The notes beneath the pieces are model-generated. The model worked only from the letters and a program-made list of their open reading frames with translations, was not told the origin of the DNA and did no database searches. This document shows positions 2,920 to 62,872 of a stretch of 64,000 bases of DNA, in pieces. Made by a program: the position numbers and the translations under genes. The stretch comes from a bacterium (GTDB lineage Bacteria > SAR324 > JACQKK01). The stretch's first letter is position 1. Each line of letters opens with the position of its first letter. The DNA is taken from assembly GCA_965249525.1 (NCBI GenBank), contig OZ252237.1, positions 836,443 through 900,442 of the forward strand, read 5' to 3'.

Positions 2920-3013
2920 ACTCTGAGAGTTATCTGCTGGTGCCAGCTATATTTTCTGAAAAAAGGATGATAGCCGAGTACATGCAGCTTTTAGGCATGC
3001 TTATCCAGGCTGC

Positions 3014-3880: not shown

Positions 3881-3894
3881 GGGAGTACACAGAG

Positions 3895-5070: not shown

Positions 5071-5260
5071 GCTGATTATCTTTACCAAATGGGTGGCTAT
5101 TTTCAAGTGCAATTTTCAAGATCTATCTCTGCAAGTTCTTGTTTCCATCATCTATCATAGGGCTGCAATTTTTCACAAACCTTTGTGAACAAAGGCTTTT
5201 GGACGCGAAATTGCATAGCTTGCAAACAGAAGTATGTTTTTTTAAGGAAGTTGGTAATAG

Positions 5261-5944
5261 ATGGATTTGGGAGTAATAGTGGCAGCTGGGGGAGGGGGTC
5301 GTCGCAGTGAAGGAGATAAATTATGGCGTATGCTGGGGGGAGAGGTGGTGTTGGCAAGGGTATTGAAGCAATTTCTGGCATGTGCAGAGGTAGATCGGGT
5401 AGTTGTAGTGTTGCGTATGGGAGATGAGGCGCGTTTTGAGAAGTTGGTAGAAACTTTCGGTGAGGGGGAGAGATTGTGCTGGGTGTTGGGGGGTGCAGAG
5501 CGTCAGGATTCGGTATTTTGTGGTTTGCAGGAGTTATCGGGTTTATCGCTGCGGCAGGTATTGATTCATGATGGAGCGCGGCCATTTTTTACTGCAGAGT
5601 TATTGCAGCGGGTGATAGAGTCATTGAGAGAGCATGAGGCAGTGATGCCTGTGTTGCCTGTGGTGGATACACTAAGGCGTGTGGGTATTGAGGGGGAGTT
5701 GGTATCACGGGAGGGGTTGGTGGCGGTGCAGACGCCGCAAGGGTTTTGGTGGGAGACGATTTGGCAGGCGCATTGTTTGGCGAGAGAAAGGGGGAGTTAT
5801 TATACAGATGATGCAGAAGCGGTGCTACAATCTGGCAAGAAGGTGCACATGGAGTTGGGAGTTCGTGAGAATGTGAAGTTAACCACAAGAGAGGATTTTG
5901 TGTTTGCAGAACAATTACTGACTGGTATTATACAGAAGGACTGA
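5261..5944 (+). CDS. ispD: 2-C-methyl-D-erythritol 4-phosphate cytidylyltransferase
   Basis: GVIVAAGGGGRR...LIHDGARPF...VQTPQGF, the IspD signature pattern. 227 aa. Confidence 0.9.
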   Translation: MDLGVIVAAGGGGRRSEGDKLWRMLGGEVVLARVLKQFLACAEVDRVVVVLRMGDEARFEKLVETFGEGERLCWVLGGAERQDSVFCGLQELSGLSLRQVLIHDGARPFFTAELLQRVIESLREHEAVMPVLPVVDTLRRVGIEGELVSREGLVAVQTPQGFWWETIWQAHCLARERGSYYTDDAEAVLQSGKKVHMELGVRENVKLTTREDFVFAEQLLTGIIQKD

Positions 5945-5945
5945 A

Positions 5946-17618: not shown

Positions 17619-18248
17619 TTAGGATTTTGAGGGTGTGAGTTGTTGACGAATGGTATTGGTATGTTGGCGGGTGATTTTGAGTGCGGTATCAAGGATGGCT
17701 TCGGGGGTGTCTTCTGGGGAATGTTTTCTAATGTGGATGCGCAGGATGGTTTGGCTGTCTTGGATGCGGATAATTTGTCCTACCAGCCAGAGTTGGTTTT
17801 TATCACGGCATAGTTTGCAGAGAATGTGTTCAAAGTGCAGGGAGTAGAACAGTTCTACGGGTAGGGTTTTGCCAAGTTGTTGGATGTGGGTGCTGTTGGC
17901 GATACCGCTAAAGGCAAGAGATTGACTGAGTTGTTGGTGAGCGGCTCTGGAGAGGAAGTTGTTTTTTAGCTGTGATTGGAGCTGACGGCGGGTGATGAAT
18001 TGCTTCCATGGAAGACTGCGGAGTTGTTTTTCTGCTTCTCTGAGGACGATTTCGTGGAGTTTGGGTGCGGTGTTTGGAGGTGCGGGCATATTAAGGAAGG
18101 CGATACTTTGTGAACTCAGAGGTGTGTTTATGCTGGGTTCTTTTGATTCTTGTGGTTTAAAAACCACAGTATCGCTGCAGTCACTGATGGAGTAAATCAG
18201 CCCCAACAATACGAGTACGCGGGGAATTTTTGCCAGCAATGTTTTCAT
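17619..18248 (-). CDS. hypothetical secreted protein or lipoprotein
   Basis: N-terminal signal-like sequence (MKTLLAKIPRVLVLLGLIYSISDC). Its ATG overlaps the mutS stop (ATGA at 18245-18248), which implies translational coupling. Confidence 0.5.
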   Translation of the reverse strand: MKTLLAKIPRVLVLLGLIYSISDCSDTVVFKPQESKEPSINTPLSSQSIAFLNMPAPPNTAPKLHEIVLREAEKQLRSLPWKQFITRRQLQSQLKNNFLSRAAHQQLSQSLAFSGIANSTHIQQLGKTLPVELFYSLHFEHILCKLCRDKNQLWLVGQIIRIQDSQTILRIHIRKHSPEDTPEAILDTALKITRQHTNTIRQQLTPSKS

Positions 18249-20983
18249 GAGTGGAGTTTATCGCGCAGTTGATGGATGAGGTTGAGTGCTTCAAGGGGGG
18301 TGATTTTGTCTATTTGGAGGTTTTTCAGGGTTTCTAGGGCAGGATGGGGTGGTGGAAGAGGGCTGCGGGGTTTTGGGGGTGTGTTGTTGGGGTTATGGGG
18401 TTGAAAGAGTGCGGGTTGCTGTTTGGGGGAAGATTTTGCCACCAGTTGTTTAACAACCTGGGATGCCCGTTGGATAACATTATGGGGGAGACCTGCCAGT
18501 TTTGCTACTTGGATGCCGTGGCTGCGGTCGCTGGGTCCTGGGATGAGTTTTCTAGCGAAGAGCAGTTGGTTTTTTTGTTCATGAACCAGCATGGAGTGAT
18601 TGGCGAATCGTGGGAGGATATCTTCTAGGGCGGTGAGTTCGTGGTAGTGGGTGGCAAAGAGCGTGAGCGGTCCAGCTTGGTGCAGGTATTCAGCGACTGC
18701 CCAGGCGATGCTGATGCCGTCATAGGTGCTGGTGCCGCGACCGATTTCATCTAGTATAATGAGGCTGTTGGGGTTGGCGTTGTTGAGGATATTGGCAGTT
18801 TCAGTCATTTCCATCATAAAGGTGCTTTGTCCGCGTACCAGGTTGTCGTCTGCGCCGATACGGGTGAAGATTTGTTCTATGAGGCTTATGCGGACATGTT
18901 TGGCGGGGACAAAGCTGCCGGCTTGTGCCATCAGTTGAATAAGGGCAGTTTGGCGCATTACTGTGGACTTGCCTGCCATGTTGGGGCCGGTAATCAGGAT
19001 GATTTGCTGCTGATCTGCCTGTAAATGTACATCATTGGGAATAAAGGGTTCTGAAGAGAGTTTTTCCAATAACGGATGCCTGCCGTGTTCAATCTGGATG
19101 CAGACTGGCGCATCTTTCTCTAGCAATTCAGGACGGCAGTAGTTGTTGTGGTGTGCGACTTCCGCCAAGGTGCACAGTACATCCAATGTGGCTACGCGCT
19201 CGGCGGTTTGCTGTATGCGTCTAAGGTAGCCCTGCAGAATTTTGCAGGTTTCCTCAAATAGTTCTTGTTCTATGTTGTATGCCCGCTGCTGGGCGCTGAG
19301 TAATTTTTCTTCCAGTTCTTGCAGTGTATCCAGCGTAAAGCGTTCTGCGTTTGCCAATGTCTGTTTGCGCCGATACTCTGGCGGCACTTTGCTGGCGTGT
19401 ATCTTAGGCAGCTCTACATAGTACCCAAATACCCGATTGTAGCGCAGCTTCAATGAATTGATTCCTGTACGCTTGCGTTCTTTCTGTTCTAATTGCGTCA
19501 TCACTTCACGGCTGTTCTTGGAAAGCGCCCGCAGTTCGTCCAGCTGCCTGCTGACCCCTTCTGCTATATATCCTCCTTCGCTCAATTTTAATTGCGGTTC
19601 TTGCAAATAGCGTTGCTGCAGGTGTTCACGCACTTCATCCACGGGGTCAAAATTGTTCGCCAATTGCCATAACAGACCTTGCTGATTTTTTGCTGTTTTC
19701 ACAACACTATTCAGCCACTGGGGCAGACCTTCCAATCCACACAGCGCATCGCGCAAAGCCACCAAATCTGCTATCCCCACCCGAGGTGAACTCACCCGAC
19801 CCACCATGCGCTCCAAATCTTTCACCTGCAAAAAACATGCTTGCAGTCCGCAGCGCAAATCAGCATCTTTGATGAGTCTCTCCACCGCATCCAAGCGATG
19901 CTCAATCTGCTGTTTATCCAGCAAGGGACGAACCAACCACCGTCTCAACATGCGCGAGCCCATCGGGGTGCCGCCCCGATTCAACATCCCAAACAAATTA
20001 GCACCACTATCCCCCTGCCTCTTGCTGGAGAATACCTCTAAATGACGCAGCGATATTTCATCCAAGCGCATCACATCGCTGTCACTCCTCACCCGCGGCC
20101 GATACAAATGCTCCAGACCATAATGAATCTGATCTAAATAATCCAATAAGGCCCCGCAGGCACGCAAAGCCAACGGCATCTCTCCCAAGCCAAAGCCGTC
20201 CAAACCCTGCACCTGATACAATTTCTCTAGCCTCTGACGGGTGTTTTTCTCGCTAAAAGTTAACAAAGGACGCTCTTCCAAGCGCATCTGTTCACCTTCA
20301 TGCGCAAGCCCGTCCATCTTCTCATGCAGCTTCGCAGTAACTTCCGTCAACGGAGGCAGCAGTACCTCTCGTGGATGTTCTATCTCACATAAACCCACCA
20401 GCTGTTCCAAGGCATTCTCTTTCAATTGAAAAAATTCCAACTGACCCGTCGTAACATCACTCAATACACCCCCTATCTCTTCCCGATCCTGCCATACCGA
20501 CAGCAAATAGTGGCTGCGACCCTCCCTAGCATCTATATCCGTTAATAAGGTCCCAGGGGTGGCTACCCGCACCACCTGACGCTCAACCAACTTCCCCGGT
20601 GCGCAGGGTTCCACCTGGTCCGCCAGTGCCACCTTGTAGCCAGCTTCTACCAACTTGTTCAGATACTGCTGATAGGAATGGCACGGCACCCCACACATTG
20701 CCAAGGGATTTGGCATATTCTTATGGCGTGATGTTAAAGCTATCCCCAATATCTCAGACGCCAACTCTGCGTCCTCCCCAAACATTTCGTAAAACTCCCC
20801 CGCCTGGAAAAATAAAATGCAGTCCAAAAAATGGCGTTTCAGTTGATTAAACTGATTCATCATGGGCGTAGAAGAGTGAACCAACCCACCGGCGCGCAGC
20901 GGCGCCTTTCTGGCTGCAGTTTCTCGTTCTATGGCTTCCATGCTGTCTCCTTCATGACCTTCTGCCTCCAAATGCAAACCCAT
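18245..20983 (-). CDS. mutS: DNA mismatch repair protein MutS
   Basis: TPMMNQFNQLK...FFQAGEFYEMFGEDA (mismatch-binding domain) and ITGPNMAGKSTVMRQ...STFMMEM...LILDEIGRGTSTYDG (ATPase domain). Confidence 0.95.
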   Translation of the reverse strand: MGLHLEAEGHEGDSMEAIERETAARKAPLRAGGLVHSSTPMMNQFNQLKRHFLDCILFFQAGEFYEMFGEDAELASEILGIALTSRHKNMPNPLAMCGVPCHSYQQYLNKLVEAGYKVALADQVEPCAPGKLVERQVVRVATPGTLLTDIDAREGRSHYLLSVWQDREEIGGVLSDVTTGQLEFFQLKENALEQLVGLCEIEHPREVLLPPLTEVTAKLHEKMDGLAHEGEQMRLEERPLLTFSEKNTRQRLEKLYQVQGLDGFGLGEMPLALRACGALLDYLDQIHYGLEHLYRPRVRSDSDVMRLDEISLRHLEVFSSKRQGDSGANLFGMLNRGGTPMGSRMLRRWLVRPLLDKQQIEHRLDAVERLIKDADLRCGLQACFLQVKDLERMVGRVSSPRVGIADLVALRDALCGLEGLPQWLNSVVKTAKNQQGLLWQLANNFDPVDEVREHLQQRYLQEPQLKLSEGGYIAEGVSRQLDELRALSKNSREVMTQLEQKERKRTGINSLKLRYNRVFGYYVELPKIHASKVPPEYRRKQTLANAERFTLDTLQELEEKLLSAQQRAYNIEQELFEETCKILQGYLRRIQQTAERVATLDVLCTLAEVAHHNNYCRPELLEKDAPVCIQIEHGRHPLLEKLSSEPFIPNDVHLQADQQQIILITGPNMAGKSTVMRQTALIQLMAQAGSFVPAKHVRISLIEQIFTRIGADDNLVRGQSTFMMEMTETANILNNANPNSLIILDEIGRGTSTYDGISIAWAVAEYLHQAGPLTLFATHYHELTALEDILPRFANHSMLVHEQKNQLLFARKLIPGPSDRSHGIQVAKLAGLPHNVIQRASQVVKQLVAKSSPKQQPALFQPHNPNNTPPKPRSPLPPPHPALETLKNLQIDKITPLEALNLIHQLRDKLHS

Positions 20984-48425: not shown

Positions 48426-48442
48426 GAATCCCTCCACCCCCA
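48426..48442 (+). other. fragment identical to the 3' end of tRNA-Pro (T-loop/acceptor 3' half)
   Basis: gaatccctccacccc at 48426-48440 is identical to 52904-52918 inside the tRNA-Pro gene. It marks the left end of duplicate copy A. Confidence 0.85.
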
Positions 48443-48588
48443 TTCATGGTAAAAACTTGGTTATTGTCGTAGGTTTTTATGGTAAACTACTATCACTATT
48501 ATCAATACTATCAATTTTATGCCAGATGGACAATGACACTATGCCAGTTTTCATATGACACAAAAAATGTTTTCAAGGAGATACAAAA

Positions 48589-50802
48589 ATGTTTTTAAGT
48601 AATAACTTTTTCAAGTTCAGGAGGTTGTTTGTGTTCGCTTTGCTGGGCATGCTAGGAACCATGTTAGCCAGCTGTGATGAAGCTTCTCAAGAAGATCAGG
48701 GAAACGTTTATTATGAGCGAGACCCAATACCTACCGCAGAAGACTTATTTTGTTCTAGTCCAAGTGAAGAGGATAAAGTAGCAGTTGAGCATTCCTTCAG
48801 TCCTGTTGACATAAGTACTGGCCACTTGTTTTTAAGTGCAGTACAACTTGCGGAAAAAGCAAAATTAACGGGTCTTGAGTCTGCTTCAATAGATTTAAGG
48901 GACAGCTCAAACGAGCTTTTTGAGTTAAGGAATAACAATGCTCTGCATATCAAAGATCAACAATCGTTTTTGACTAACATCCAAGAGAACCGTAGAGAAG
49001 CACTGCTTGTCTTGAAGGATTCTCAGGGTGAATACTGCCTGCTGCTGTCTTTGCAGCCTGAAAGCAGCTCCTCATCACCTGATGGGGATAGTTCCACCTC
49101 TGATGGCAGCCCCTCATCACCTGATGGGGATAGTTCCACCTCTGATGGCAGCCCCTCATCACCTGATGGGGATAGTTCCACCTCTGATGGCAGCCCCTCA
49201 TCACCTGATGGAGACAGCCAGGTTACCCTGTTGGCTGAACAGCCTGAGTTTCAATTGCCCTATGTTTGGTGGAATCGGGATAGTGGTAAGGCTCGCACCG
49301 TTTTTGCTGGCAATATTCCCCACATCAATTACATTGGAAAAGTGCTCACTCTGACAACAGATACCCCACTGAATTTTGAGCTTGTTTCTGTAAGCCCAGC
49401 GGCATGGGCAAACTTTTTCGGGATAAATGAAGAGACAGGAGCGCTTTATATTTCGGATCAATTTGCAGATTTAAGTAATGTATTTAATGTGGAAAAAGAC
49501 AAGTCATCCTATGGCTTATCACAATTGGATGCAGAGTATCAGAAAGAAGGCTTGCCTTTGCCTGAACAATTTGTGCTAACCGTCAATGTTAGCTTGCAAG
49601 ATGACAGCAACAGCGAGGAAACAACGCACATTACAGTGAAGATGCCTAAATTTGGCAATCCTGACTGCAGTATATTAGATTGGGATGCAGACCTAGAAGG
49701 TTGGACAGAGGAACAGGTGAGCACCTTTCAAAGGGGAATTTGCAAGCATCTAGATTATAAGGTCAGGCCCAGGGGGAAGGAGTTTATTACAGACCAGGCT
49801 ATTTTGAATACCCTGCCTGGCGGGCTTACACAGCCCAAGGCAAATTATCAGGTGATTTTTAGGGATGAATTTAATGAAGAAGGGGGAATTGAAAAATTAG
49901 ATCACCGTCTGTGGACCGCACGATATAGTCTAGCCTGCAACCAATTCAGGCAAGAGGGAGGGGTTATCCACTTGAGAGTAGCTGATGACTGCAGATCAGC
50001 TGATGCGAAAGGCAATCTCCATCGCCGTTATCCTTCAATAACCACAGCAGGTAAATTTGAATATAAATATGGCTATATAGAAGCCAGGTTTAATCGTGTT
50101 CCCATTACTGGTAGGGGAGTTAGTTTTTTTAGCAGCTGGGGGTCGCGTCCAGCTCTCTTTTCGAAGAGCTACCGTGATTTTATGTGTCGTGGCAATAATC
50201 CTCAAGCAAAGAGGATGCGCTGGCTAACCTCCAGGGGGGTGGAGATGCAGCATTTAGAATTTAGTAAGGGACCATCCGCCTGGTGGCTTCATCATCTGAT
50301 CGATCCTAAGAGAGCCCGCAATAAATGTCATACTTATTCAGATGGCAGGGGCAAAGGCATCCATTCTGGTCTTTGGTGGGCAACGCACAGTTTTGTAGTC
50401 TCGCAGGAGATTGTCATAGGTGTGGAGTGGACTCCCGCAGGATACAAGGGCTTTATCAATGGAGAACCTTACAAGGGTTGGGCTAGTATTGATCCTAATA
50501 TTAGAAAATTCTATGAATATGGATATTCTACTCCAACAAACACAGGAATTCTTGGGTATAAATTTACAGACATACCAAACTATAATGATGAAGACCCAGA
50601 CAATCCACCATGCAGCCAGTTAGGAGACTGTATCATTGACCGTACAGTAAGCCATGCCTATCAGGACATAGGCATCACCATGTCAGCGAACCCAGCCATA
50701 GGAGTTTCCTCTCAAAATTGGGAAGATTTTGCTGAAATAGACTATATTAGGGTATTTCAACCAGAAGATCAATACAGCGATGTGGAAAAAACATACAAGT
50801 GA
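48589..50802 (+). CDS. lipoprotein with Ser/Asp repeat linker and C-terminal GH16/ConA-like glucanase-lectin domain, paralog 1
   Basis: Lipobox LGTMLAS|CDE. (SSPDGDSSTSDGSP)n linker. Cadherin/Ig-like strings (FFGINEETGALYISD...LDAEY...FVLTVNV). GH16-like motifs VIFRDEFNEEG..W, YPSITTAGKFEYKYGYIEARFNRVP and C-terminal EIDYIRVFQ. AAGGAG lies 8 nt upstream of the ATG. Confidence 0.75.
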   Translation: MFLSNNFFKFRRLFVFALLGMLGTMLASCDEASQEDQGNVYYERDPIPTAEDLFCSSPSEEDKVAVEHSFSPVDISTGHLFLSAVQLAEKAKLTGLESASIDLRDSSNELFELRNNNALHIKDQQSFLTNIQENRREALLVLKDSQGEYCLLLSLQPESSSSSPDGDSSTSDGSPSSPDGDSSTSDGSPSSPDGDSSTSDGSPSSPDGDSQVTLLAEQPEFQLPYVWWNRDSGKARTVFAGNIPHINYIGKVLTLTTDTPLNFELVSVSPAAWANFFGINEETGALYISDQFADLSNVFNVEKDKSSYGLSQLDAEYQKEGLPLPEQFVLTVNVSLQDDSNSEETTHITVKMPKFGNPDCSILDWDADLEGWTEEQVSTFQRGICKHLDYKVRPRGKEFITDQAILNTLPGGLTQPKANYQVIFRDEFNEEGGIEKLDHRLWTARYSLACNQFRQEGGVIHLRVADDCRSADAKGNLHRRYPSITTAGKFEYKYGYIEARFNRVPITGRGVSFFSSWGSRPALFSKSYRDFMCRGNNPQAKRMRWLTSRGVEMQHLEFSKGPSAWWLHHLIDPKRARNKCHTYSDGRGKGIHSGLWWATHSFVVSQEIVIGVEWTPAGYKGFINGEPYKGWASIDPNIRKFYEYGYSTPTNTGILGYKFTDIPNYNDEDPDNPPCSQLGDCIIDRTVSHAYQDIGITMSANPAIGVSSQNWEDFAEIDYIRVFQPEDQYSDVEKTYK
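49072..49218 (+). repeat. 42-nt in-frame tandem repeat, 3 full units plus a partial one (SSPDGDSSTSDGSP)
   Basis: Units at 49072-49113, 49114-49155 and 49156-49197, with a partial unit to 49218. Read directly from the sequence. Confidence 0.9.
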
Positions 50803-50840
50803 TGGGGGTTCAGCTAGATGTTGTCATGCTGGGCTGGTCA

Positions 50841-51740
50841 TCAACCATGCTGGTACATTTCCAAGGCTTGTTTTACGGCGGCAACAGTTTCCAGTTCATG
50901 GGTGCGAATAATCTGCGTGCCGCCCATCAAGGCAAAGACTGCGAAAAAAGGTTCGGCTTGGCGACGATGGTTGTTGCCAAAGGCTTCGGGCGCATGGGGG
51001 AGGATATTCATCAGCGGCCAACCGAGGATGTGCAGCCGCCAAGTGTTGAGCAAGGTGTGCAGTTGGTGATGAACGCGCTGGGGCGAATCTTTAAGGTTGT
51101 CATAGTAGAAGCCTAAGCCGGGATCTAAGATGTGCTGTTGTACGCCGAGCTGTTGTGCCAATTGCAGGCGCTGCTGAAACCATTGTTGCATGGAGGCAAT
51201 CATGTCTGGCAAGAATTCAAAATTGCCCACTTGACGGACATGTTCTCCTTGTACATAGCAGTGAATGACAGCGGTTTGATGTTTGGCAGCCAAGCGATAG
51301 GCTTCCTTTTCTTCGACTGCGCCTGTGAGGTTAAAAATAGCGGCGCCTGCTTGGGCTGCTGCTTCCAGCACTTGAGGATAATAACTTTCTACCGATACCA
51401 ACAGGCCTTCTGCAGCTAAGGCTTTTATTACAGGCTGCAGACGTTCTATTTGTTCAGCAGGCGCAACACGCTTTGCCTGTCCAAGGGTGGATTCTGCCCC
51501 AATGTCTATCAGACGTGCCCCTTGCTGAGCCAGTTCACGACCACGGGCGATGGCAGCAGATGCCTCGGTACAGATACTTTCCTTGTAGGCAGAGTCTGGG
51601 GAAAGGTTGATCACTCCCATCAACAGGGGGCGTAGGAAAGTCAGCTGCTGTCCTCGTAGCTGGAAAGGATGAAAGGAGGGGCTGCTAGCTACTGGCTGAC
51701 GGTGCTGCATCAGTTTAGCAATGGCGACGAGATTCAGCAT
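50841..51740 (-). CDS. folP: dihydropteroate synthase
   Basis: LMGVINLSPDS...DIGAEST...AAIFN...HILDPGLGF... The start is uncertain (ATG 51740 or 51710; the track ORF extends to 51833). Confidence 0.85.
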   Translation of the reverse strand: MLNLVAIAKLMQHRQPVASSPSFHPFQLRGQQLTFLRPLLMGVINLSPDSAYKESICTEASAAIARGRELAQQGARLIDIGAESTLGQAKRVAPAEQIERLQPVIKALAAEGLLVSVESYYPQVLEAAAQAGAAIFNLTGAVEEKEAYRLAAKHQTAVIHCYVQGEHVRQVGNFEFLPDMIASMQQWFQQRLQLAQQLGVQQHILDPGLGFYYDNLKDSPQRVHHQLHTLLNTWRLHILGWPLMNILPHAPEAFGNNHRRQAEPFFAVFALMGGTQIIRTHELETVAAVKQALEMYQHG

Positions 51741-52020
51741 AGACTGTCTATTGGCTGGAAAATCCTGGGTTCTGCTGCTGTGCGACTGCCATCCGCTCAT
51801 TTGGTTTAGCAGTGTTTTGCACGCGCATTGCATAGATGGTCAAGCGTTCATGCCTGCAACATACCATGCTGTCGGATACATGCAGGTTGGTCTATCGGTC
51901 ACTAAAACCATTTCATTAGTAATGCAAGGACGCATTATCCAAGAAAGAAGCGCAAGGATGCAACACCAAGACGTACCAGTTAAGCAAAACCGCTTGGTAG
52001 GTACCAATTCAAGGTGAAGC

Positions 52021-52797
52021 ATGAAATCCACATTACCCTTTATTGCACCTATTAAACAACAGAACCCTTCTCCTTGCTGCAGGCATTACATGTGTCTGTT
52101 GATGTTGATAGTCTTAATTGTTTTGATGCTTTCAGCCTGTGCCCACCCTTTCCGCATGCCAGTGGGTGCTAAAGGTATGCAAAACAAACGATTCTCTCAT
52201 CAGGGAAGCATTAAAGACAACAACCCTTCTTTGTGGAATTCACGACACCCCCAAGTACGCAAATTCCGCCGCTATTACAACCGTACCATTACTGTGGAAA
52301 AATCCCTGAAACGCGCGCAACCCTATCTGCCTGCCATCGTAAAAGAATTCCGTCGCCGTGGGTTGCCGGAAGAATTGGCTTATCTTCCCATGCTTGAATC
52401 CACCTTCCTCAATAACGCTGACTCTGGAAACGCACTCGGCATGTGGCAGTTCACACGCCAAACCGCACAACACATGGGATTATATGTGGGCACCCTAGGA
52501 GATGATCGCCTCAACTGGAAAAAATCCACCATAGCTGCCGTTCGTTACCTGGAACAACTGGGAGAGCGCTTTAACTACCGCTGGGACCTCGCCCTTGCTG
52601 CTTACAACGGAGGCCCTAACTATCTAGAAAAAAACATCAAAAAATATCACTCCCACGATGTCTTCAACCTCAAACTCCGAAAAGAAACCTCCGAATACGT
52701 CCCCAAATTCATCGCCATGCTACAAGTCGCCAAACAGAAATACCCCCATCTTTACACCATAAGAAAAAAGAATCCCCTGCGACTCGTCGCACGTTGA
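52021..52797 (+). CDS. lytic murein transglycosylase (SLT domain) lipoprotein
   Basis: Lipobox-like VLMLSAC. SLT catalytic region LPMLESTF...GMWQFTRQTA...AAYNGGPNYL. Confidence 0.75.
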   Translation: MKSTLPFIAPIKQQNPSPCCRHYMCLLMLIVLIVLMLSACAHPFRMPVGAKGMQNKRFSHQGSIKDNNPSLWNSRHPQVRKFRRYYNRTITVEKSLKRAQPYLPAIVKEFRRRGLPEELAYLPMLESTFLNNADSGNALGMWQFTRQTAQHMGLYVGTLGDDRLNWKKSTIAAVRYLEQLGERFNYRWDLALAAYNGGPNYLEKNIKKYHSHDVFNLKLRKETSEYVPKFIAMLQVAKQKYPHLYTIRKKNPLRLVAR

Positions 52798-52846: not shown

Positions 52847-52920
52847 CGGGGTGTAGCGCAGTCTGGCAGCGCACCTGCTTTGGGAGCAGGGGGCCGGGGG
52901 TTCGAATCCCTCCACCCCGA
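52847..52920 (+). tRNA. tRNA-Pro (anticodon UGG)
   Basis: Manual cloverleaf: acceptor CGGGGTG/CACCCCG, D-stem GCGC/GCGC, anticodon stem CCTGC/GCAGG with loop TTTGGGA, T-arm GGGGG-TTCGAAT-CCCTC, discriminator A. CCA is not encoded. 74 nt. Confidence 0.9.
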
Positions 52921-53057
52921 TTTATGGTAAAAACTTGGTTATTGTCGTAGGTTTTTATGGTAAACTATTATCAATACTATCAATTTTATGCCAGATGGAC
53001 AATGACACTATGCCAGTTTTCATATGACACAAAAAATGTTTTCAAAGATATACAGAA

Positions 53058-55220
53058 GTGTTTTTAAGTAATAGCCTTTTCAAGTTCAGGAGGTTGTTTG
53101 TGTTCGCTTTGCTGGGCATGCTAGGAACCATGTTAGCCAGCTGTGATGAAGCTTCTCAAGAAGATCAGGGAAACGTTTATTATGAGCGAGACCCAATACC
53201 TACCGCACAAGGCTTATTTTGTTCTAGTCCAAGTGAAGAGGATAAAGTAGCAGTTGGGCATTCCTTCAGTCTTGTTGACATAAGTACTGGCCGCTTGTTT
53301 TTAAGTGCAAAACAACTTGCGGAAAAAGCAAAATTAACGGGTCTTGAGTCTGCTTCAATAGATTTAAGGGACAGCTCAAACGAGCTTTTTGAGTTAAGGA
53401 ATAACAATGTTCTGCATATCAAAGATAAACAATCGTTTTTGACTAACATCCAAGAGAACCGTAGAGAAGCACTGCTTGTCTTGAAGGATTCTCAGGATGA
53501 ATACTGCCTGCTGCTGTCTTTGCAGCCTGAAAGCAGCTCCTCATCACCTGATGGGGATAGTTCCACCTCTGATGGCAGCCCCTCATCACCTGATGGGGAT
53601 AGTTCCACCTCTGATGGCAGCCCCTCATCACCTGATGGAGACAGCCAGGTTACCCTGTTGGCTGAACAGCCTGAGTTTCAATTGCCCTATGTTTGGTGGA
53701 ATCAGGATAGTGGTAAGGCTCGCACCGTTTTTGCTGGCAATATTCCCCACATCAATTACATTGGAAAAGTGCTCACTCTGACAATAGATACCCCACTGAA
53801 TTTTGAGCTTGTTTCTGTAAGCCCAGCGGCATGGGCAAACTTTTTCGGGATAAATGAAGAGACAGGAGCGCTTTATATTTCGGATCAATTTGCAGATTTA
53901 AGTAATGTATTTAATGTGGAAAAAGACAAGTCATCCTATGGCTTATCACAATTGGATGCAGAGTATCAGAAAGAAGGCTTGCCTTTGCCTGAACAATTTG
54001 TGCTAACCGTCAATGTTAGCTTGCAAGATGACAGCAACAGCGAGGAAACAACGCACATTACAGTGAAGATGCCTAAATTTGGCAATCCTGACTGCAGTAT
54101 ATTAGATTGGGATGCAGACCTAGAAGGTTGGACAGAGGAACAGGTGAGCACCTTTCAAAGGGGAATTTGCAAGCATCTAGATTATAAGGTCAGGCCCAGG
54201 GGGAAGGAGTTTATTACAGACCAGGCTATTTTGAATACCCTGCCTGGCGGGCTTACACAGCCCAAGGCAAATTATCAGGTGATTTTTAGGGATGAATTTA
54301 ATGAAGAAGGGGGAATTGAAAAATTAGATCACCGTCTGTGGACCGCACGATATAGTCTAGCCTGCAACCAATTCAGGCAAGAGGGAGGGGTTATCCACTT
54401 GAGAGTAGCTGATGACTGCAGATCAGCTGATGCGAAAGGCAATAACTATCGCCGTTATCCTTCAATAACCACAGCAGGTAAATTTGAATATAAATATGGC
54501 TATATAGAAGCCAGGTTTAATCGTGTTCCCATTACTGGTAGGGGAGTTAGTTTTTTTAGCAGCTGGGGGTCGCGTCCAGCTCTCTTTTCGAAGAGCTACC
54601 GTGATTTTATGTGTCGTGGCAATAATCCTCAAGCAAAGAGGATGCGCTGGCTAACCTCCAGGGGGGTGGAGATGGAGTATTTAGAAATTAGTAAGGGACG
54701 ATTCGCCTGGTGGGTTTATCATCTGATCGATCCTAAGAGAGCCCACTCTAACTGTCATACTTATTCAGATGGCAGGGGCAAAGGCATCCATTCTGGTCTT
54801 TGGTGGGCTACTCACGATTTTAGACTATTATCGCGGCAGATTGTCATAGGTGTGGAGTGGACTCCCGCAGGATACAAAGGCTTTATCAATGGAGAACCTT
54901 ACAGGGGTTATAGCAAAGGCATCGGAGAATTTCGGGAATATGGATATTCTACCGAAACTAACACAAGAATTGGTGGGTTTGAATTTACAAGGATACCAGG
55001 AGCACCCTCGCATGTGCGCTCAACATCATGCAACCCATCAGGAGTCTGTATCATTGACCGTACAGTAAGCCATGCCTATCAGAACATAGGCATCACCATG
55101 TCAGCGAACCCAAACATAGGAGTTTCCTCTCAAAATTGGCAAGATTTTGCTGAAATAGACTATATTAGGGTATTTCAACCAGAAGATCAATACAGGGGTG
55201 TGGAAAAAACATACAAGTGA
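53058..55220 (+). CDS. lipoprotein with Ser/Asp repeat linker and GH16/ConA-like domain, paralog 2
   Basis: Same architecture as 48589-50802, but with a GTG start, and the AAGGAG of copy 1 is AAAGAT here. 720 aa. Confidence 0.7.
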   Translation: MFLSNSLFKFRRLFVFALLGMLGTMLASCDEASQEDQGNVYYERDPIPTAQGLFCSSPSEEDKVAVGHSFSLVDISTGRLFLSAKQLAEKAKLTGLESASIDLRDSSNELFELRNNNVLHIKDKQSFLTNIQENRREALLVLKDSQDEYCLLLSLQPESSSSSPDGDSSTSDGSPSSPDGDSSTSDGSPSSPDGDSQVTLLAEQPEFQLPYVWWNQDSGKARTVFAGNIPHINYIGKVLTLTIDTPLNFELVSVSPAAWANFFGINEETGALYISDQFADLSNVFNVEKDKSSYGLSQLDAEYQKEGLPLPEQFVLTVNVSLQDDSNSEETTHITVKMPKFGNPDCSILDWDADLEGWTEEQVSTFQRGICKHLDYKVRPRGKEFITDQAILNTLPGGLTQPKANYQVIFRDEFNEEGGIEKLDHRLWTARYSLACNQFRQEGGVIHLRVADDCRSADAKGNNYRRYPSITTAGKFEYKYGYIEARFNRVPITGRGVSFFSSWGSRPALFSKSYRDFMCRGNNPQAKRMRWLTSRGVEMEYLEISKGRFAWWVYHLIDPKRAHSNCHTYSDGRGKGIHSGLWWATHDFRLLSRQIVIGVEWTPAGYKGFINGEPYRGYSKGIGEFREYGYSTETNTRIGGFEFTRIPGAPSHVRSTSCNPSGVCIIDRTVSHAYQNIGITMSANPNIGVSSQNWQDFAEIDYIRVFQPEDQYRGVEKTYK
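53541..53645 (+). repeat. 42-nt in-frame tandem repeat, 2 full units plus a partial one
   Basis: Units at 53541-53582 and 53583-53624, with a partial unit to 53645. One unit fewer than in copy 1. Confidence 0.9.
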
Positions 55221-55283
55221 TGGGGGTTCAGCTGGATTTTATCATGCAGAAATGCTGCAAATAAAAACCATCTGTTGCCTGTG

Positions 55284-55329
55284 GTCTTGTTGCCAGGTCT
55301 TGTTGCCAGGTCTTGTTGCCAGGTCTTGG
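55284..55329. repeat. 13-nt tandem repeat (gtcttgttgccag) x3 plus a partial copy
   Basis: 55284-55296, 55297-55309 and 55310-55322 are identical, followed by gtcttgg. Intergenic, between paralog 2 and the AI-2E transporter gene (convergent). Confidence 0.85.
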
Positions 55330-57586: not shown

Positions 57587-58234
57587 TCAAAGGGGGTCGG
57601 CAGCCATAATGGAAGGGGTGGAGATGATTTTGGAAGCAACTCTGGGAGCAATTTTTTGAGGGCTGCCGATTTCTTTGGAAGCCTTTTCTGATGCGACTTG
57701 ACTGGCAAGCCAGAGTTTGTGTGCTTCTTGGGGGGTAACTTGCTTGAGCCAGTATTTGTCTGTTGGAGTAATCTCCTGGTGAGGTTTGATGTCACCAGGT
57801 GTATCAGCAGCAGTGGTTGAAGAGATGGCATCGGTAGGGGGAGATTTTGCAGCAGGGGTATTGGTTACGGTGCGGCTTTCGGTTGGCTGAATAACTTCTC
57901 GAACGATGCGGAAATTCGTCTGTGAAGCAGAGAGGGGCTGCAGCTGTTCAAGCAGGGTGTTTAGGGGGGTGATTTTGCCTTGGAGTGCCTGCTGGAAGCG
58001 AATTTGCAACAAGACCACACGGGTTTCTGTGTGTGCTTGTTTAATACATCTTTGGATTTCTTCTAGTTCGGCTGCAGAAGGTTGGCGATCCAACTTGATA
58101 GCAGCAGCCATATCAGTCCAGCAAAGCCCTTGCCTCGCCAATTGGCGAATACGCCATAGAGAAGGCTTCCAAGCCCTAACAGGGCCGAATTTTCTGGGGG
58201 CGGGGTTCTTGGGCAAAGAGGTTTTTGACAGCAA
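57587..58234 (-). CDS. hypothetical protein
   Basis: ORF with host-like C3-rich codon usage. The ORF-track start is a TTG and the first ATG is at 58111. I see no recognisable domain. Confidence 0.4.
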   Translation of the reverse strand: MLSKTSLPKNPAPRKFGPVRAWKPSLWRIRQLARQGLCWTDMAAAIKLDRQPSAAELEEIQRCIKQAHTETRVVLLQIRFQQALQGKITPLNTLLEQLQPLSASQTNFRIVREVIQPTESRTVTNTPAAKSPPTDAISSTTAADTPGDIKPHQEITPTDKYWLKQVTPQEAHKLWLASQVASEKASKEIGSPQKIAPRVASKIISTPSIMAADPL

Positions 58235-58660
58235 GCAATAGCTTCTAAGCTAGCTTTATTGGGTCTGATGCCTTACAGCAGGTTTGAGCGCACTATATGG
58301 GAATATCTTGAATGAGAGTTTAGTATAAAGGTTCTTTCTTGCAAAATCAATTGCTTGGTGAGCAAAGCTTAGCTATTGCCATCGAATTTGCTGTGTTGGC
58401 AGTTGTTGAGCAGCGGTAAAAATATCCTCAGCCTTGACGGCACCCAGGCCTGCTGGAGGCAAATCGGCATCCAACAAAGAAGTTATCTGGGGAACAGAAA
58501 TCTCCATACACTAACCACTTCTGCAACACCCTGCAGCACACAGCATACCAACCCTTCCACCACCATCGCGCTGAGCTTGTCTCTTCATACCAAATATGAC
58601 ACACTGCACCGATGCTTTTCATGCTCGCATGCCATACATCCTCACTCCATATCTGCCAAA

Positions 58661-59255
58661 ATGATGCCGTTCATACCGCTGATACGCTTATCGCTGGCCA
58701 GTGCTGTTATCATGACCATGCCCGCCTTGATGACATCAACAGTTCTTGCCCAGGGGAAATGCCACAAACTCTGCGATGAAAGCGCCGCCAAAACCTATTC
58801 CCCTAAACAAATTAGGCAATTCCTCAAGCAAGGCGAAACTGTGGACTCTCTCGGTAAAAATCAATCCACCCCCCTGCACTGGATTGCCAGTGACAATCCC
58901 AACCCCAAAGCCACAGCAAGCCTCCTGAAAGCAGGTGCTAATCCCAACATCAAAGATGCCTATGGATCCACACCACTGGTCTGGGCAGCAGGCTACAATC
59001 TCAATCCCCAAGTACTCCAGCTGCTGCTCAAAGCCGGCGCTGATATCAACACCGCCGCCGACAACGGCTCCGGCCCGCTTCATGCAGCAGCACTTATGAA
59101 CCAAAATCCCACAATTCCTGCTTGATTATGGTGCCAATCCCAAAGCTAAAAATAAAGATGATCTCACCCCCCTGGACTTGCTGAAAGAAAATCCGCTGCT
59201 TAAAGACACTCCCATCAAAAAAATCCTCCAAGATGCCCTGAAAAAAATGCTATGA
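58661..59255 (+). pseudogene. secreted ankyrin-repeat protein gene interrupted by a +1 frameshift
   Basis: Signal peptide MMPFIPLIRLSLASAVIMTMPALMTSTVLAQG, then ANK repeats (TPLHWIA...LLKAGANPN, TPLVWAA...LLKAGADIN, GPLHAAA...). The frame stops at 59123-59125, but the +1 frame continues FLLDYGANPKAKNKDDLTPLDLL...KKML* to 59255. The shift is most simply placed at the A4 run at 59103-59106. Confidence 0.7.
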
Positions 59256-59358: not shown

Positions 59359-61698
59359 TCAAATGCCGTTAGGGTCATTTGTGCTGAGAATGATATTGTG
59401 AAATCTACCCGGGTCAATAGAACTAAATTGCTGGGGTTGAACATGCCAGGTGTTCCAAGTGAGTTCGGCTGTGTATGGTATGTTTTCAATTGCGGCAATC
59501 CCCGAATAATCAAACGAGAGGTCGGTGAACCAGCCAGAATCTCGAACCAACTTCAGTTGGTTTTTTAAGCCTGAACAAGCAGGGGTATCCCCTTTATGTT
59601 GGGCTGGCAGCGACTTGGCGCATTCTATCGCTTTACCCGTAGGCACATAATAGGACACCCTGTAATTATTCTTTTTCAGCCGAGATATACATGCTCCTAT
59701 CTTTTCATTATCCAATGCGGTATTAGAGGGGAATTCTATAAACAGACTGGCCTTTTTTCTTTTAGAGGCAACCAGATAATCTGCCAGTGCATGACAGGCA
59801 TTTACATCATTTAGATTTTTACCGTCAATCCATACCTCTTTTTTGCGCTTTTCGGCAATTTGCAAAATATCCTCAAGTTTAAGGCCGGTATTCGTTGCAG
59901 GAGGATGGTATATGTCCATCTTGCCGTCAGAGGATATCACCAGGTCGATTTCTAGGCAGTCAGCCACCAAGCTTCCTCGCAGTGCAGCTGCAATGCTATT
60001 TGAGCGATGGTAGCAAATATTTGTTCCCTTCATTCCGTTAGCTTGACTGACAGCAAATATTTGGGTGGGGCTGTCAGATGAGTCTATCTCTCCTGCGGTC
60101 TGAGATTGAAATGAATTCAGATGAACATACGAAAGACTATCTGAAAGCCTCCTCTTAACGATACGTATGGGTATATTTTTTTGCCTGCCAAGATGTGTTG
60201 TTGTTCCAATGCCTTCAACACTTATACCATTATTAAGAAGATGCAGAATAGTAGGGGAAAGTTGTTCAAGCGTGTGAATAACATTGGACTTAGATGCCAA
60301 ACGATAGTGTTCCCATAAATCTGCATAACTTTTTTGAGCGGATTCATTAAAATACATAACAAATGGAACACGGACCATTTCATGTAAAAACCTGCTGGAA
60401 TCATGGTATCTATCGGTAAATACCGCGTCTCCATGATCTGAAAAATAGATGAATACGAATGGTTCTTTTATTGATTTGATAAGTTCAAAAACTTGGGAAA
60501 TACTGAAATCAATGTAACGAATCGCATTATCGTATGATTCAATTTCTTTAATTTCTCTTTTAAGGCTGCCAAAAATAGATTCTTTATTTCTTCCTTGATA
60601 ATAGGAATCTATATTGGAATGAAATTCTTCAGGAATATGATGATGGTATCCAATATGCCCCGCATATGAATGCAAGAAAATTACCTCTGGACGATCATAT
60701 TTCATTTCCACTAACTTTTTAGGAAGATAGTGTTTGAAGTGCTCATGGTCAAATGGTCTAGCATAATATCCACCAAAGTTACCCAAACCTTTTGGTGTAG
60801 AGAAAATTCTATCATTTTTATTAAAAATTAAAGAAGAAACAGTATTCCAGCTGCCGCTTTGTCCCTGGTTGGAAATAAGAAAAGTATCAACACCGTTGAA
60901 TTCTAAAATATCGATTAAAGATAGTCTTTTTTGTTCAAAGATTGGCAGATATATTTCTTTTGGATCAGTGCCAAAGCTCAAGGCAGTTAGTAGGGATGGC
61001 GAGGTATGGGTATGAGTTGAGAAAACATTATCAAAAAAGAGTGCTCCACTATCCGCATCAGACTTTAATGACGATAAAAAAGGAGTGGTATCCCGAGGAT
61101 ATCCATATATGCCCATATTCATTATAGATGTAGACTCACCAATATATATGAATATCTTTAATCTGGAATTTCGTAAATCCAATTGAGGAGAACTTTGGGC
61201 AAAGTTGATTTTCATTTCTTTGTTAATCTTCTTCACTTTCATATAGCTTTGGAAAACCCGATTGGATTCATAACCAATAATTAATGCTATAACGGCAAAA
61301 CATACTCCTACTACGGTATTAGAGACATATTTATCTTTTAGTTGAATTTTTTTCTGACTTAATAAAATGATTTTACGCCATATGAAAAAACAGATAATAA
61401 TGAAAATAACAGCTAACAGAGTATCTTCTCGTTTCGCTAATAATCCCAATTCTGGAAGCAATGATAGTAAGAAAAAATAAGCTTCATCGACAGCAAAATC
61501 AAAGCTTTCAATAAAAGAATCCGTTCCAAGCCCTCGGGCATAGAAGAAAAATGGATCCACAATCCATATCCATATTAGCATTGCTAAAATACTTACACTG
61601 GTTTGAATCCATTTACTTTTAATAAAGTAATGAGCCGCCAGTCCACTAGTTGCAATCAAATAGATGAATGTAACTTTCTCAGTAATTAAAATATCCAT
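59359..61698 (-). CDS. phosphoethanolamine-transferase-type sulfatase fused to a C-terminal PLC/GDPD-like phosphodiesterase domain
   Basis: About 5 N-terminal TM helices. EptA/OpgE-like motifs IYIGESTS...GYPRDTTPFL, THTHTSPSL, LHSYAGHIGY, YDNAIRYIDF and IYFSDHGD. The C-terminal ~250 aa contain ICYHRSNS...ADCLEIDLVISSDGKMDIYHPP (HR...E.D...H pattern). About 33% GC. The ORF extends to a TTG at 61725; the first ATG is at 61698. Confidence 0.7.
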   Translation of the reverse strand: MDILITEKVTFIYLIATSGLAAHYFIKSKWIQTSVSILAMLIWIWIVDPFFFYARGLGTDSFIESFDFAVDEAYFFLLSLLPELGLLAKREDTLLAVIFIIICFFIWRKIILLSQKKIQLKDKYVSNTVVGVCFAVIALIIGYESNRVFQSYMKVKKINKEMKINFAQSSPQLDLRNSRLKIFIYIGESTSIMNMGIYGYPRDTTPFLSSLKSDADSGALFFDNVFSTHTHTSPSLLTALSFGTDPKEIYLPIFEQKRLSLIDILEFNGVDTFLISNQGQSGSWNTVSSLIFNKNDRIFSTPKGLGNFGGYYARPFDHEHFKHYLPKKLVEMKYDRPEVIFLHSYAGHIGYHHHIPEEFHSNIDSYYQGRNKESIFGSLKREIKEIESYDNAIRYIDFSISQVFELIKSIKEPFVFIYFSDHGDAVFTDRYHDSSRFLHEMVRVPFVMYFNESAQKSYADLWEHYRLASKSNVIHTLEQLSPTILHLLNNGISVEGIGTTTHLGRQKNIPIRIVKRRLSDSLSYVHLNSFQSQTAGEIDSSDSPTQIFAVSQANGMKGTNICYHRSNSIAAALRGSLVADCLEIDLVISSDGKMDIYHPPATNTGLKLEDILQIAEKRKKEVWIDGKNLNDVNACHALADYLVASKRKKASLFIEFPSNTALDNEKIGACISRLKKNNYRVSYYVPTGKAIECAKSLPAQHKGDTPACSGLKNQLKLVRDSGWFTDLSFDYSGIAAIENIPYTAELTWNTWHVQPQQFSSIDPGRFHNIILSTNDPNGI

Positions 61699-61858
61699 TA
61701 TTTTATCAATGCCGCTTCTTATCAAATTAATTATGAATTAGGAATCCAAATATAAATACCATCTAAATAATACCAATATAGAATAATATTTAAATTTGGT
61801 TATCTTGACGCATCATCAGAATTTTTTAACAAAATGGTTAATTACAGGGGATTGCTTG

Positions 61859-62872
61859 CTATAAGTCAACTACTGCTGATTTCTTGAAAGATTCTGTCAT
61901 GGCAAGTGCAACTCGGGTAGCTTGGGTGCCATCGTGCAAAGAAACAATATTTTTGGCTTCTTTTCTTACGGCTTGAGTAAAATGGTGAGCCTCCTGAATA
62001 AAAGCTTGTTCAAAACGCTGGTAGAAATCTCGCACACACTCTTGACGGACTCCATGAACATCGCTAATTTCTAAGCTGGTGTTGCTGGGGGGTTTTCCTA
62101 CCTGCAAAATACCATCCGTACAGATAATCTCTGTATGCGAATGATGACCATGAGTCATGGTTCTGCTCATAGCTATGACTGCCATGGTGCCATTGTCCAT
62201 CTGGCATAAAGCAGTTACATTGTCAGCATCGTTTTGTTTTTCAAACTCGGGATATACATAGCTCCCTCCCAAAGCAAATACCCGCTTAAACTCGGCTGCC
62301 AAAAACCAGCGAGCCAGATCAATATCATGCACGTTGGCATCCAAAAAAATACCTCCGCCTGTCTTGACAAATTCTACCTGAAAAGGCGCATATTCTGTTA
62401 AATCTGCTGTCTGAGACCGCACCAAAAATGGTTTGCCTATCTTTCCTTTCGATATTTGCCGATACGCCTGCTGATACCCCGCATCGTACCGACGTACAAA
62501 CCCTAATGACACCACTTTATCTGAAAACGCAGCCGCTTCCTTTTCCACACGCAAACATTCTTCCAAGGTCAATGCCAATGGCTTTTCACAAAACACATGC
62601 AATCCCTTGCGCAGTGCCATCAAAATCTGCTGGCCATGCATATTCGATGATGTGGCAATGAACACAGCTTCTAAACCTGACAGTTCTAACATTTGTTGAT
62701 AGTTTTCAAATATATGCGGCAGCTTCAATGCATCCCTTGCCCACATCAACTCTTCAGATACAATGCTGCAGGCCGCTACTAAATTTGCACCTGCTACTCG
62801 CCCGTGCAAATTTTCCGCATGACGCTTTCCTAAACGTCCCAAACCAGCAATGCCTATTTTAACAGGTTCCAT
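61859..62872 (-). CDS. Gfo/Idh/MocA-family NAD(P)-dependent oxidoreductase
   Basis: VKIGIAGLGRLGKRHA...VFCEKPLA..., the Rossmann plus GFO_IDH_MocA pattern. 337 aa. Confidence 0.8.
   Translation of the reverse strand: MEPVKIGIAGLGRLGKRHAENLHGRVAGANLVAACSIVSEELMWARDALKLPHIFENYQQMLELSGLEAVFIATSSNMHGQQILMALRKGLHVFCEKPLALTLEECLRVEKEAAAFSDKVVSLGFVRRYDAGYQQAYRQISKGKIGKPFLVRSQTADLTEYAPFQVEFVKTGGGIFLDANVHDIDLARWFLAAEFKRVFALGGSYVYPEFEKQNDADNVTALCQMDNGTMAVIAMSRTMTHGHHSHTEIICTDGILQVGKPPSNTSLEISDVHGVRQECVRDFYQRFEQAFIQEAHHFTQAVRKEAKNIVSLHDGTQATRVALAMTESFKKSAVVDL

Follow-up and report, generated by a model that had tools for sequence, protein, structure and literature searches.

Introduction

Host-associated bacteria carry fast-evolving duplicated surface proteins, examples being Helicobacter pylori bab/sab, Leptospira ligA/ligB and Treponema tpr. 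General reviews cover the surface proteins of host-associated bacteria (PMC4534519, PMC3960876), the concerted evolution of prokaryotic paralogs by gene conversion has likewise been reviewed (PMC6053082), and for the CEACAM1 paralogs of animals an escape from concerted evolution through natural selection has been described (PMC7042247). Here we describe two lipoprotein genes, copy A and copy B, which lie in a 64,000-nucleotide (nt) stretch of bacterial contig OZ252237.1 (the window) and which, outside a single diverged patch, differ from one another by amino-acid replacements only. We argue, with a probability of roughly 0.75, that these are two surface-lipoprotein paralogs evolving in concert whose amino-acid sequences selection has driven apart.

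As in described concerted-evolution systems, A and B are closer to each other within their genome than to their positional orthologs, the gene is a mosaic of homogenised tracts and a diverged block, and replacements persist where neutral differences are gone. Unlike in those systems, the homogenised part of the pair shows strictly 0 silent differences against 34 replacements, and the genes belong to an uncharacterised family from an apparently deep-branching, uncultured bacterium. With bab/sab, ligA/ligB and tpr the locus has in common that lipoproteins or outer-membrane proteins occur as paralog pairs, with gene conversion, positive selection and variation in repeat length, whereas it has no sequence homology to these systems and no archive of silent cassettes in the window, and its variation extends to cleft residues that are conserved in an enzyme-like domain. 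That surface paralogs can combine concerted evolution with positive selection is a well-known principle, and the A/B pair is a new, well-supported example of it. Its value lies in being a well-documented case and a lead for functional work rather than a new kind of system: it is an unusually clean natural case of selection acting against concerted evolution, with the homogenisation independently proven by a sister genome, and it nominates ~30 residues, located in an N-terminal module, on two strands of the cleft and in a Cys-Cys loop, as functionally important. In addition, it points to an uncharacterised family of GH16-like lipoproteins, without a Pfam assignment, in a lineage that has no close sequenced relative.

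Results

Copies A and B differ by replacements

A codon-aware alignment of A and B, in which one unit of a 42-nt variable number tandem repeat (VNTR) is the only gap through codon 597, gave 17 nt differences in 15 codons over codons 2–553 of A. All of these are non-synonymous: seven affect the first codon position and ten the second, and the third position is untouched. A first-pass annotation of the window had reported exactly this, 17 differences and no synonymous change over the first ~1.6 kb, and careful realignment by codon revealed no overlooked synonymous difference in codons 2–553. Its 15 replacements likewise stood, although five of the residue numbers that it gave (E50Q, D51G, V84K, Q123K and G145D) were off by 1–2. 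In corrected numbering the N-terminal replacements are N6S, F7L, E51Q, D52G, E67G, P72L, H79R, V85K (2 nt), A118V, Q124K and G147D, and those in the remainder of codons 2–553 are R230Q, T257I, L477N (2 nt) and H478Y. The copies have unlike start codons as well, ATG in A and GTG in B.

The same pattern continues past codon 553. Codons 554–597 contain ten replaced codons (11 nt) and codons 693–737 contain five (6 nt), with no silent change in either segment, and the first silent difference between A and B is found at codon 598, where the diverged patch begins. The total outside the patch is 34 nt differences in 30 codons with none silent, and the number of synonymous substitutions per synonymous site (dS) between A and B is 0 over the homogenised part, where ~400 synonymous sites show no difference. 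Within the patch itself (codons 598–692), dS is 0.32 and its non-synonymous counterpart (dN) 0.31 when counted by the Nei-Gojobori method (NG86), with a dN/dS ratio (omega) of 1.05 by maximum likelihood (ML).

Neutral substitution is statistically rejected

By NG86 counting, synonymous sites make up 21.5% of all sites, and from this share the probability of observing no silent change is 0.016 for the 17 differences, in line with the order of 1% that had been suggested for them at first pass, and 3e-4 for all 34. The silent fraction in this gene is 35.5% for transitions and 16% for transversions, and when conditioned on the 12 transitions and five transversions observed in codons 2–553 the probability is 0.002, while that of zero third-position changes among the 17 is 0.001. 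Discounting N6S and F7L, which occupy signal-peptide or possibly 5′ untranslated positions, still leaves a conditional P of ~0.005.

We also fitted a purpose-written pairwise ML codon model of the GY94 type with F3x4. Omega was driven to its upper bound, and omega = 1 was rejected both for codons 2–553 (likelihood ratio test (LRT) 11.3, P = 8e-4) and over all codons outside the patch (LRT 19.8, P = 8e-6). The profile-likelihood 95% lower bounds on omega were ~3.4 and ~6, respectively. The A/B substitution spectrum is mixed, with all four bases involved in both directions. An overlapping gene in another frame was rejected as a candidate, as the 34 changes are silent in none of the five other frames, several of which would acquire stops. 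With omega significantly above 1, and with neither another reading frame nor a biased mutation spectrum accounting for the excess, the diversifying selection proposed in the first-pass annotation is supported.

A sister genome documents homogenisation

A 67%-identical protein (P0003) is encoded on contig L001 of a related metagenomic genome, in a region syntenic with the copy-B side of our locus (tRNA-Pro, lipoprotein gene, AI-2E transporter and ScpA). At L001:1864–6960 there are two copies of the gene, O1 (~1966–4155) and O2 (4562–6931, encoding P0003). The 5′ half of O1 contains several frameshifts, and this copy keeps an intact open reading frame (ORF) of 447 codons; the gap between O1 and O2 holds a ~200-nt fragment of the folP 3′ end together with a 66-nt partial tRNA-Pro. 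The right-hand junction and flank of O1 are those of A, and those of O2 are those of B; because these junctions are common to both genomes, the duplication must be older than their split.

Counting informative sites among the four genes, 143 group A with B and O1 with O2, 20 group A with O1 and B with O2, and three group A with O2 and B with O1. Fifteen of the 20 lie in the last 35 aligned bases (50816–50850), which straddle the border between the duplicated 3′ flank and unique flank, and five lie in the gene. Likewise, dS is 0 between A and B, 0.056 between O1 and O2 and ~0.11 for every between-genome pair, and the A/B comparison is a mosaic along the gene, with dS passing from 0 to 0.32 and back to 0 by segment. 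The paralogs group within genomes, and the A/B pair has been homogenised by interlocus gene conversion (concerted evolution), which bears out the earlier description of a very recently homogenised pair.

The sister-genome copies also show where the gene has changed. At codons 665–680 B differs by 26–29 nt from A and O2, and A differs from O2 by 7 nt; the Cys-Cys loop in the patch is acidic in A and O2 and has been rewritten in B. A frameshift origin of the divergent Cys-loop of B was ruled out, as the nucleotides themselves differ. At G147D (GGT/GAT; 49027–49029 in A and 53496–53498 in B), both O1 and O2 carry a 12-nt tandem duplication containing both variants, SQG-SQD (L001 near 2420 and 5040), and this replacement may have arisen via alternative repeat deletions and not by point mutation. 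Near its 3′ end O2 has a poly-A run of A5 before the stop where A has A6 (L001:6815–6931 versus 50785–50802), shifting the frame and adding a C-terminal extension of ~38 residues; this may reflect genuine slippage or else a fault of the assembly.

The dS of 0.11–0.15 between the lipoprotein gene and its L001 copies indicates that silent substitutions accumulate normally in this gene. Over the whole gene, NG86 comparison with O2 gave dS of 0.15 and dN of 0.16–0.175, with omega of 1.05 for A–O2 and 1.15 for B–O2 (ML 1.3–1.45), and for codons 554–597 omega against the sister-genome copies was ~3–4.6. Eight neighbouring orthologous genes compared with L001 had dS of 0.02–0.13, dN of 0.004–0.053 and omega of 0.12–1.18, and with a dN of 0.12–0.175 the lipoprotein is by far the fastest-evolving protein of the neighbourhood. 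Among the neighbours, the SLT gene between the two copies (52021–52797) and a gene for a 215-amino-acid (aa) hypothetical protein (57587–58234) had omega of ~0.9–1.2, values that are noisy at dS of 0.02–0.03 and 3–4 silent changes.

The N-terminal module shows the same bias between O1 and O2 as between A and B, with one synonymous and 12 non-synonymous differences. Polarisation with O1 and O2 placed derived changes in A as well as in B. At codons 52, 577 and 731 the A/B difference has a counterpart between O1 and O2, and ten of the 30 differing codons show three or four different residues among the four copies.

A word-indexed search of 5.8 billion proteins returned only A, B, P0003 and one 34%-identical protein, and no further close relatives were found in this set, in GTDB genomes or in JGI metagenomes. 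Word-indexed protein searches were near-empty possibly because low-complexity VNTR words had filled the candidate list; the family was recovered by an exhaustive HMMER search, described below.

Replaced codons are clustered

Nine pairs of adjacent replaced codons were observed where 1.4 were expected, a count not attained in any of 20,000 permutations. For at least five of these pairs the derived changes stem from both copies and not from one, which argues against single multi-nucleotide mutation events. The first-pass annotation had also placed a concentration of replacements in the N-terminal ~145-aa module past the lipid anchor. Eleven of the 15 in codons 2–553 do fall in codons 2–147 (binomial P = 3e-4), although two of these, N6S and F7L, lie in the cleaved signal peptide and not past the anchor.

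A further cluster of ten replaced codons starts at codon 554. Codons 554, 555, 558, 562, 563, 567 and 568 are placed by the structural model on the putative catalytic strand, the following turn and the neighbouring strand (predicted strands E552–558 and E563–570). Conserved cleft residues are among the replaced sites, namely Q554E, V567L and Y568H, the latter two having changed in A. Since conserved cleft residues are replaced, functional divergence of the two copies fits at least as well as antigen-style diversification.

Predicted architecture of the encoded proteins

Both A and B are predicted to be bacterial lipoproteins and substrates of signal peptidase II. Read from the upstream start, on which this prediction depends, their N-termini have a charged n-region (K9, R11 and R12), a hydrophobic h-region and the lipobox LASC, the Cys29 of which is near-invariant in the family alignment, and we infer a cell-surface location for both proteins. 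The mature proteins have a net charge of -38 (A) and -21 (B). The N-terminal module was modelled by AlphaFold with a predicted local distance difference test score (pLDDT) of ~30–68. The VNTR that follows it has 2.5 units in B (53533–53638) and ~1.5 in O1 and O2, and encodes a linker rich in Ser, Asp, Gly and Pro. Its 42-nt in-frame unit alters linker length only, and simple-sequence contingency switching via the VNTR was ruled out, as the unit is in frame.

HMMER, run exhaustively against 1.84 billion representatives, identified 79 relatives, of which 47 were used for a profile and alignment; many relatives bear adhesin-type domains (cadherin-like, FN3, Big, SLH and Por secretion tail). The 47-relative profile matched GH16 laminarinases in the PDB (E = 1e-11). 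AlphaFold modelling with a four-sequence alignment was uninformative (pLDDT 29) and the remote relatives were needed; on the 47-relative alignment pLDDT was 74 overall and >80 in the C-terminal domain. Foldseek analysis of this model matched many GH16 structures, with a GH16 probability of 1.0 and target TM-scores of 0.57–0.64. By profile and model, the C-terminal domain has a GH16-like fold, and it probably binds or cleaves carbohydrate. Searches of Pfam (Glyco_hydro_16) and NCBIfam gave no match for A, B or the 47 relatives at E ≤ 1e-3, and the sole weak curated match was to SKN1/KRE6 (E = 0.01) for copy B.

The domain resembles GH16 members (laminarinases, endo-beta-galactosidases and mucin O-glycanases) in its predicted β-jelly roll, in the motifs F-R-D-E-F, Y-G-Y-x-E, E-W-T-P and D-Y-I-R-V, and in two Glu residues spaced as in E-x-D-x-x-E. 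It departs from them in its extra Cys-rich loops, in its lack of a Pfam or NCBIfam match, and in the auxiliary Asp, which is Gln in the subfamily of A and Glu in copy B, so that the full catalytic motif E-x-D-x(-x)-E is present in neither copy while both Glu residues are. In the family alignment (n = 47) E557 is invariant and E552 is found in 41 sequences. Position 554 is D in 26 of the 47 relatives, more distant members of the family, Q in 11 and N in seven, with E in copy B only. Q extends across the close subfamily; A, O1, O2 and ten other relatives have it.

Initiation sites of the two copies

Copy A has a strong Shine-Dalgarno sequence (48575–48580) 8 nt before its ATG, giving the context AAGGAG-N8-ATG, and the equivalent contexts are AAAGAT-N8-GTG in B and ATGAGA-N8-GTG in O2. 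As O2 has GTG with ATGAGA, the ATG and the stronger initiation site of A are derived. Counting the start-codon change, four of six upstream substitutions between A and B fall within a 13-nt stretch whose last base is the first of the start codon. An internal AGGAGG-N6-GTG is also present at codon 15 in both A and B. This was chosen by gene callers for B, the database entry for which (P0002) is 706 aa and starts from the internal GTG, and O2 is also called from the codon-15 GTG, though with AGGAAG there. The upstream start seems the better candidate, because only this start gives the charged n-region, and from these signals A and B may not be expressed at the same level.

A 22-nt tandem repeat (2.4 copies) extends over the Shine-Dalgarno sequence and start codon (48547–48599 and 53016–53068). 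One 22-nt unit is missing from O1 (L001 ~1940–1970), which fuses an upstream ATG to the ORF.

Discussion

We propose that A and B belong to an old tandem-repeat locus at which intragenomic gene conversion would repeatedly overwrite one lipoprotein copy with the other. The last homogenisation would have been very recent, with only a 285-nt block of hypervariable loops escaping it, and selection would have fixed or preserved ~30 amino-acid differences, split between both copies. These would concentrate in the N-terminal module and in two β-strands that may form the walls of the putative GH16 cleft; among them is Q554E, by which B differs at the auxiliary catalytic position. The start signals would have diverged too, with ATG and AAGGAG in A, and GTG and a degraded Shine-Dalgarno sequence in B. 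The outcome would be two differently expressed surface proteins that differ in charge, linker length and cleft chemistry, and the replacements would have a functional meaning. This reading covers two sub-variants, a recent adaptive burst after the last conversion, or old differences that were protected from conversion.

Several points weigh against it. The overlap of the replaced sites with sites that vary between O1 and O2 is not significant (7/29 versus 85/564, P = 0.15) and the replaced sites are not enriched at family-variable alignment columns, so that a classic 'epitope hot-spot' picture is not demonstrated. The searched databases hold only four sequences of the lipoprotein, which is no population sample. 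The longer-term omega of the gene is ~1.0–1.5, and weak constraint could supply part of the excess, although neutrality alone is still rejected. Approximately 30 sweeps in a time that allowed no synonymous change would be demanding, and the other sub-variant, with old differences protected, would require conversion tracts in the N-terminal module to be very short. Furthermore, the structure model gave only secondary structure for the sites, their placement in the cleft is model-based, and the N-terminal module is poorly modelled.

How much of the pattern is recent is the question raised by a variant of this reading that we regard as possible but doubtful, namely a steady state without a recent adaptive burst, in which the differences are old and paralog-specific, short-tract conversion erases the neutral ones and selection removes convertants. 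Concerted evolution is demonstrated here, and from the unconverted patch it is clear that conversion has acted incompletely, leaving a mosaic. Likewise, codons 577 and 731 agree with their positional orthologs (A = O1 and B = O2), and both genomes have the D/G difference of codon 52. However, the two-way difference of A and B is absent from O1 and O2 at 27 of the 30 codons concerned, and at 18 of these 27 O1 and O2 share the residue of A or B, so that the other window copy looks recently derived. In addition, the replaced N-terminal codons are 15–100 nt apart and tracts would have to be shorter than this. A fuller and more tentative version of the steady state would have conversion wipe out neutral differences while selection holds the ~30, with Q554E marking a switch between a lectin-like form and one that differs in catalysis, and with the pair being an evolved two-receptor or two-enzyme system and not a case of antigenic drift; if it were true, the A/B differences would be a natural map of specificity-determining residues in the E-x-Q-x-x-E family.

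Selection would not be needed at all if constraint were relaxed and neutral mutations had gathered after a recent homogenisation, with silent changes absent by accident. The long-term omega near 1 (NG86 1.05 and 1.15; ML 1.3–1.45), the frameshifts in O1, which show that copies can decay, and the fact that replaced sites do not avoid conserved columns are all consistent with this. We none-the-less consider it improbable, as strict neutrality is rejected both for the 17 differences (P = 0.002–0.016) and for the 34 (P = 8e-6 by LRT), both ORFs are intact over 720–737 codons, the differences are strongly clustered, and the long-term silent share of the gene, ~21%, predicts ~7 silent changes among 34. 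An artefact of sequencing, polishing or assembly, for instance strain variants or errors over two collapsed repeats, is more improbable still. The assembly is of the metagenome type and the repeats are long and near-identical, which could favour such errors, but errors ignore codon position, and none of the 17 differences is at position 3 (P = 0.001). The unique flanks also differ between the copies, being ACS/folP for A and tRNA/AI-2E for B, three of the differences recur in an independent assembly, and all differences in the homogenised region are substitutions that leave the reading frames intact.

We give least credence to targeted mutagenesis, whether by a diversity-generating retroelement (DGR) or by cassette-based segmental conversion. 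DGR template adenines sit at codon positions 1–2. DGRs also yield all-replacement patterns, and A and B share with DGR targets the avoidance of third codon positions and a predicted surface exposure; likewise, the diverged patch with its indels resembles a cassette-type variable region. However, the A/B substitutions are not adenine-specific, which contradicts DGR-type mutagenesis, and they are scattered over 2.2 kb and not confined to a variable region of ~100 nt. There is no template repeat in the window, where reverse transcriptase was not specifically searched for. Searches with A and B (blastn and tblastn) found no third copy, fragment or partial cassette in the 64-kb window. Cassette-based antigenic variation of the vls, tprK or pilE type was rejected on the lack of silent partial copies there, and cassette donors would moreover import silent differences.

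Locus organisation and neighbouring features

The duplicated segment extends over 48426–50829 on the A side and 52904–55247 on the B side, ending 27 nt past the stop codon on the right, and the two 2.4-kb repeats are 99% identical. With the spacer, the repeat unit is ~4.47 kb and comprises the lipoprotein gene, folP, SLT and tRNA-Pro. The locus is a dynamic tandem array of this unit, and the tRNA remnants, together with the fragments found at O1/O2, point to unequal crossing-over and deletions at the tRNA 3′ end. Coordinates of the features are given in Table 1.

Table 1. Positions of the lipoprotein genes, their parts and adjoining features in the window
Feature	Positions	Strand	Basis and remarks
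Copy A, lipoprotein gene	48589..50802	+	ORF, 737 codons; identical to database protein P0001
Copy B, lipoprotein gene	53058..55220	+	ORF, 720 codons counted from aligned GTG; database entry P0002
Lipoprotein signal peptide MFLSNNFFKFRRLFVFALLGMLGTMLAS-C, lipobox LASC, Cys29	48589..48675	+	Read from sequence; contains N6S and F7L
N-terminal module, residues 30-155 (~125 residues)	48676..49053	+	Nine replacements (E51Q to G147D)
In-frame 42-nt VNTR encoding SSPDGDSSTSDGSP	49064..49211	+	3.5 units in A (Tandem Repeats Finder)
Middle region, residues ~213-414, predicted mostly beta	49225..49830	+	Only two replacements, R230Q and T257I
Predicted C-terminal GH16-like beta-jelly-roll, residues ~415-737	49831..50799	+	Profile-to-PDB and Foldseek
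Putative catalytic strand E552-M-Q-H-L-E557	50242..50259	+	GH16 counterpart E-x-D-x-x-E; E-M-E-Y-L-E in copy B
Cluster of ten replaced codons (554, 555, 558, 562, 563, 567, 568, 577-579)	50248..50325	+	Putative catalytic strand and neighbouring strand; 0 silent
Diverged patch, codons 598-692	50380..50664	+	Hypervariable loops with indels, Cys-Cys loop; B counterpart 54807-55082
Homogenised 3′ end and duplicated 3′ flank, copy A	50665..50829	+	Codons 693-737 plus 27 nt of flank
tRNA-Pro(TGG) 3′ remnant, 17 nt	48426..48442	+	Left edge of duplicated segment at copy A; A/B flank alignment
Duplicated 5′ non-coding region, copy A	48443..48588	+	9-nt indel versus B, 22-nt tandem repeat, Shine-Dalgarno AAGGAG
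FolP-like pterin-binding gene, spacer between A and B	50841-51833	-	Pfam
SLT lytic transglycosylase, spacer between A and B	52021-52797	+	Pfam
Intact tRNA-Pro(TGG)	52847..52920	+	ARAGORN and Rfam; last 17 nt open duplicated segment at copy B

A 13-nt perfect tandem repeat, GGTCTTGTTGCCA, is present in 3.5 copies (55283–55328) in the convergent intergenic gap that separates copy B from the AI-2E transporter gene, and L001 holds a degenerate form of it. A 33-nt piece of the conserved lipoprotein 5′ leader (48516–48548) is 91% identical to 62178–62210 on the minus strand, within a GFO/IDH/MocA oxidoreductase gene. This match had E = 1.7e-6 with a 2.4-kb query and falls below 1e-5 with the whole window as query, and it may be due to chance or to a shared binding site.

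The window also encodes an ankyrin-repeat protein (58376–59125) and a type II secretion secretin (5946–8231). Its G+C content falls to 0.34 at 60001–62000, compared with ~0.45–0.53 elsewhere, inside a sulfatase/phosphoethanolamine-transferase-like gene (59359–61725). MutS (18245–20983) is at most 43% identical to any of 185,579 GTDB species representatives, the 43% figure being a cut-off match, and the top full-length matches, at 42%, belong to a set spread across numerous phyla. The source contig measures 1.72 Mb, and the organism seems to be an uncultured bacterium that branches deeply and has a small genome.

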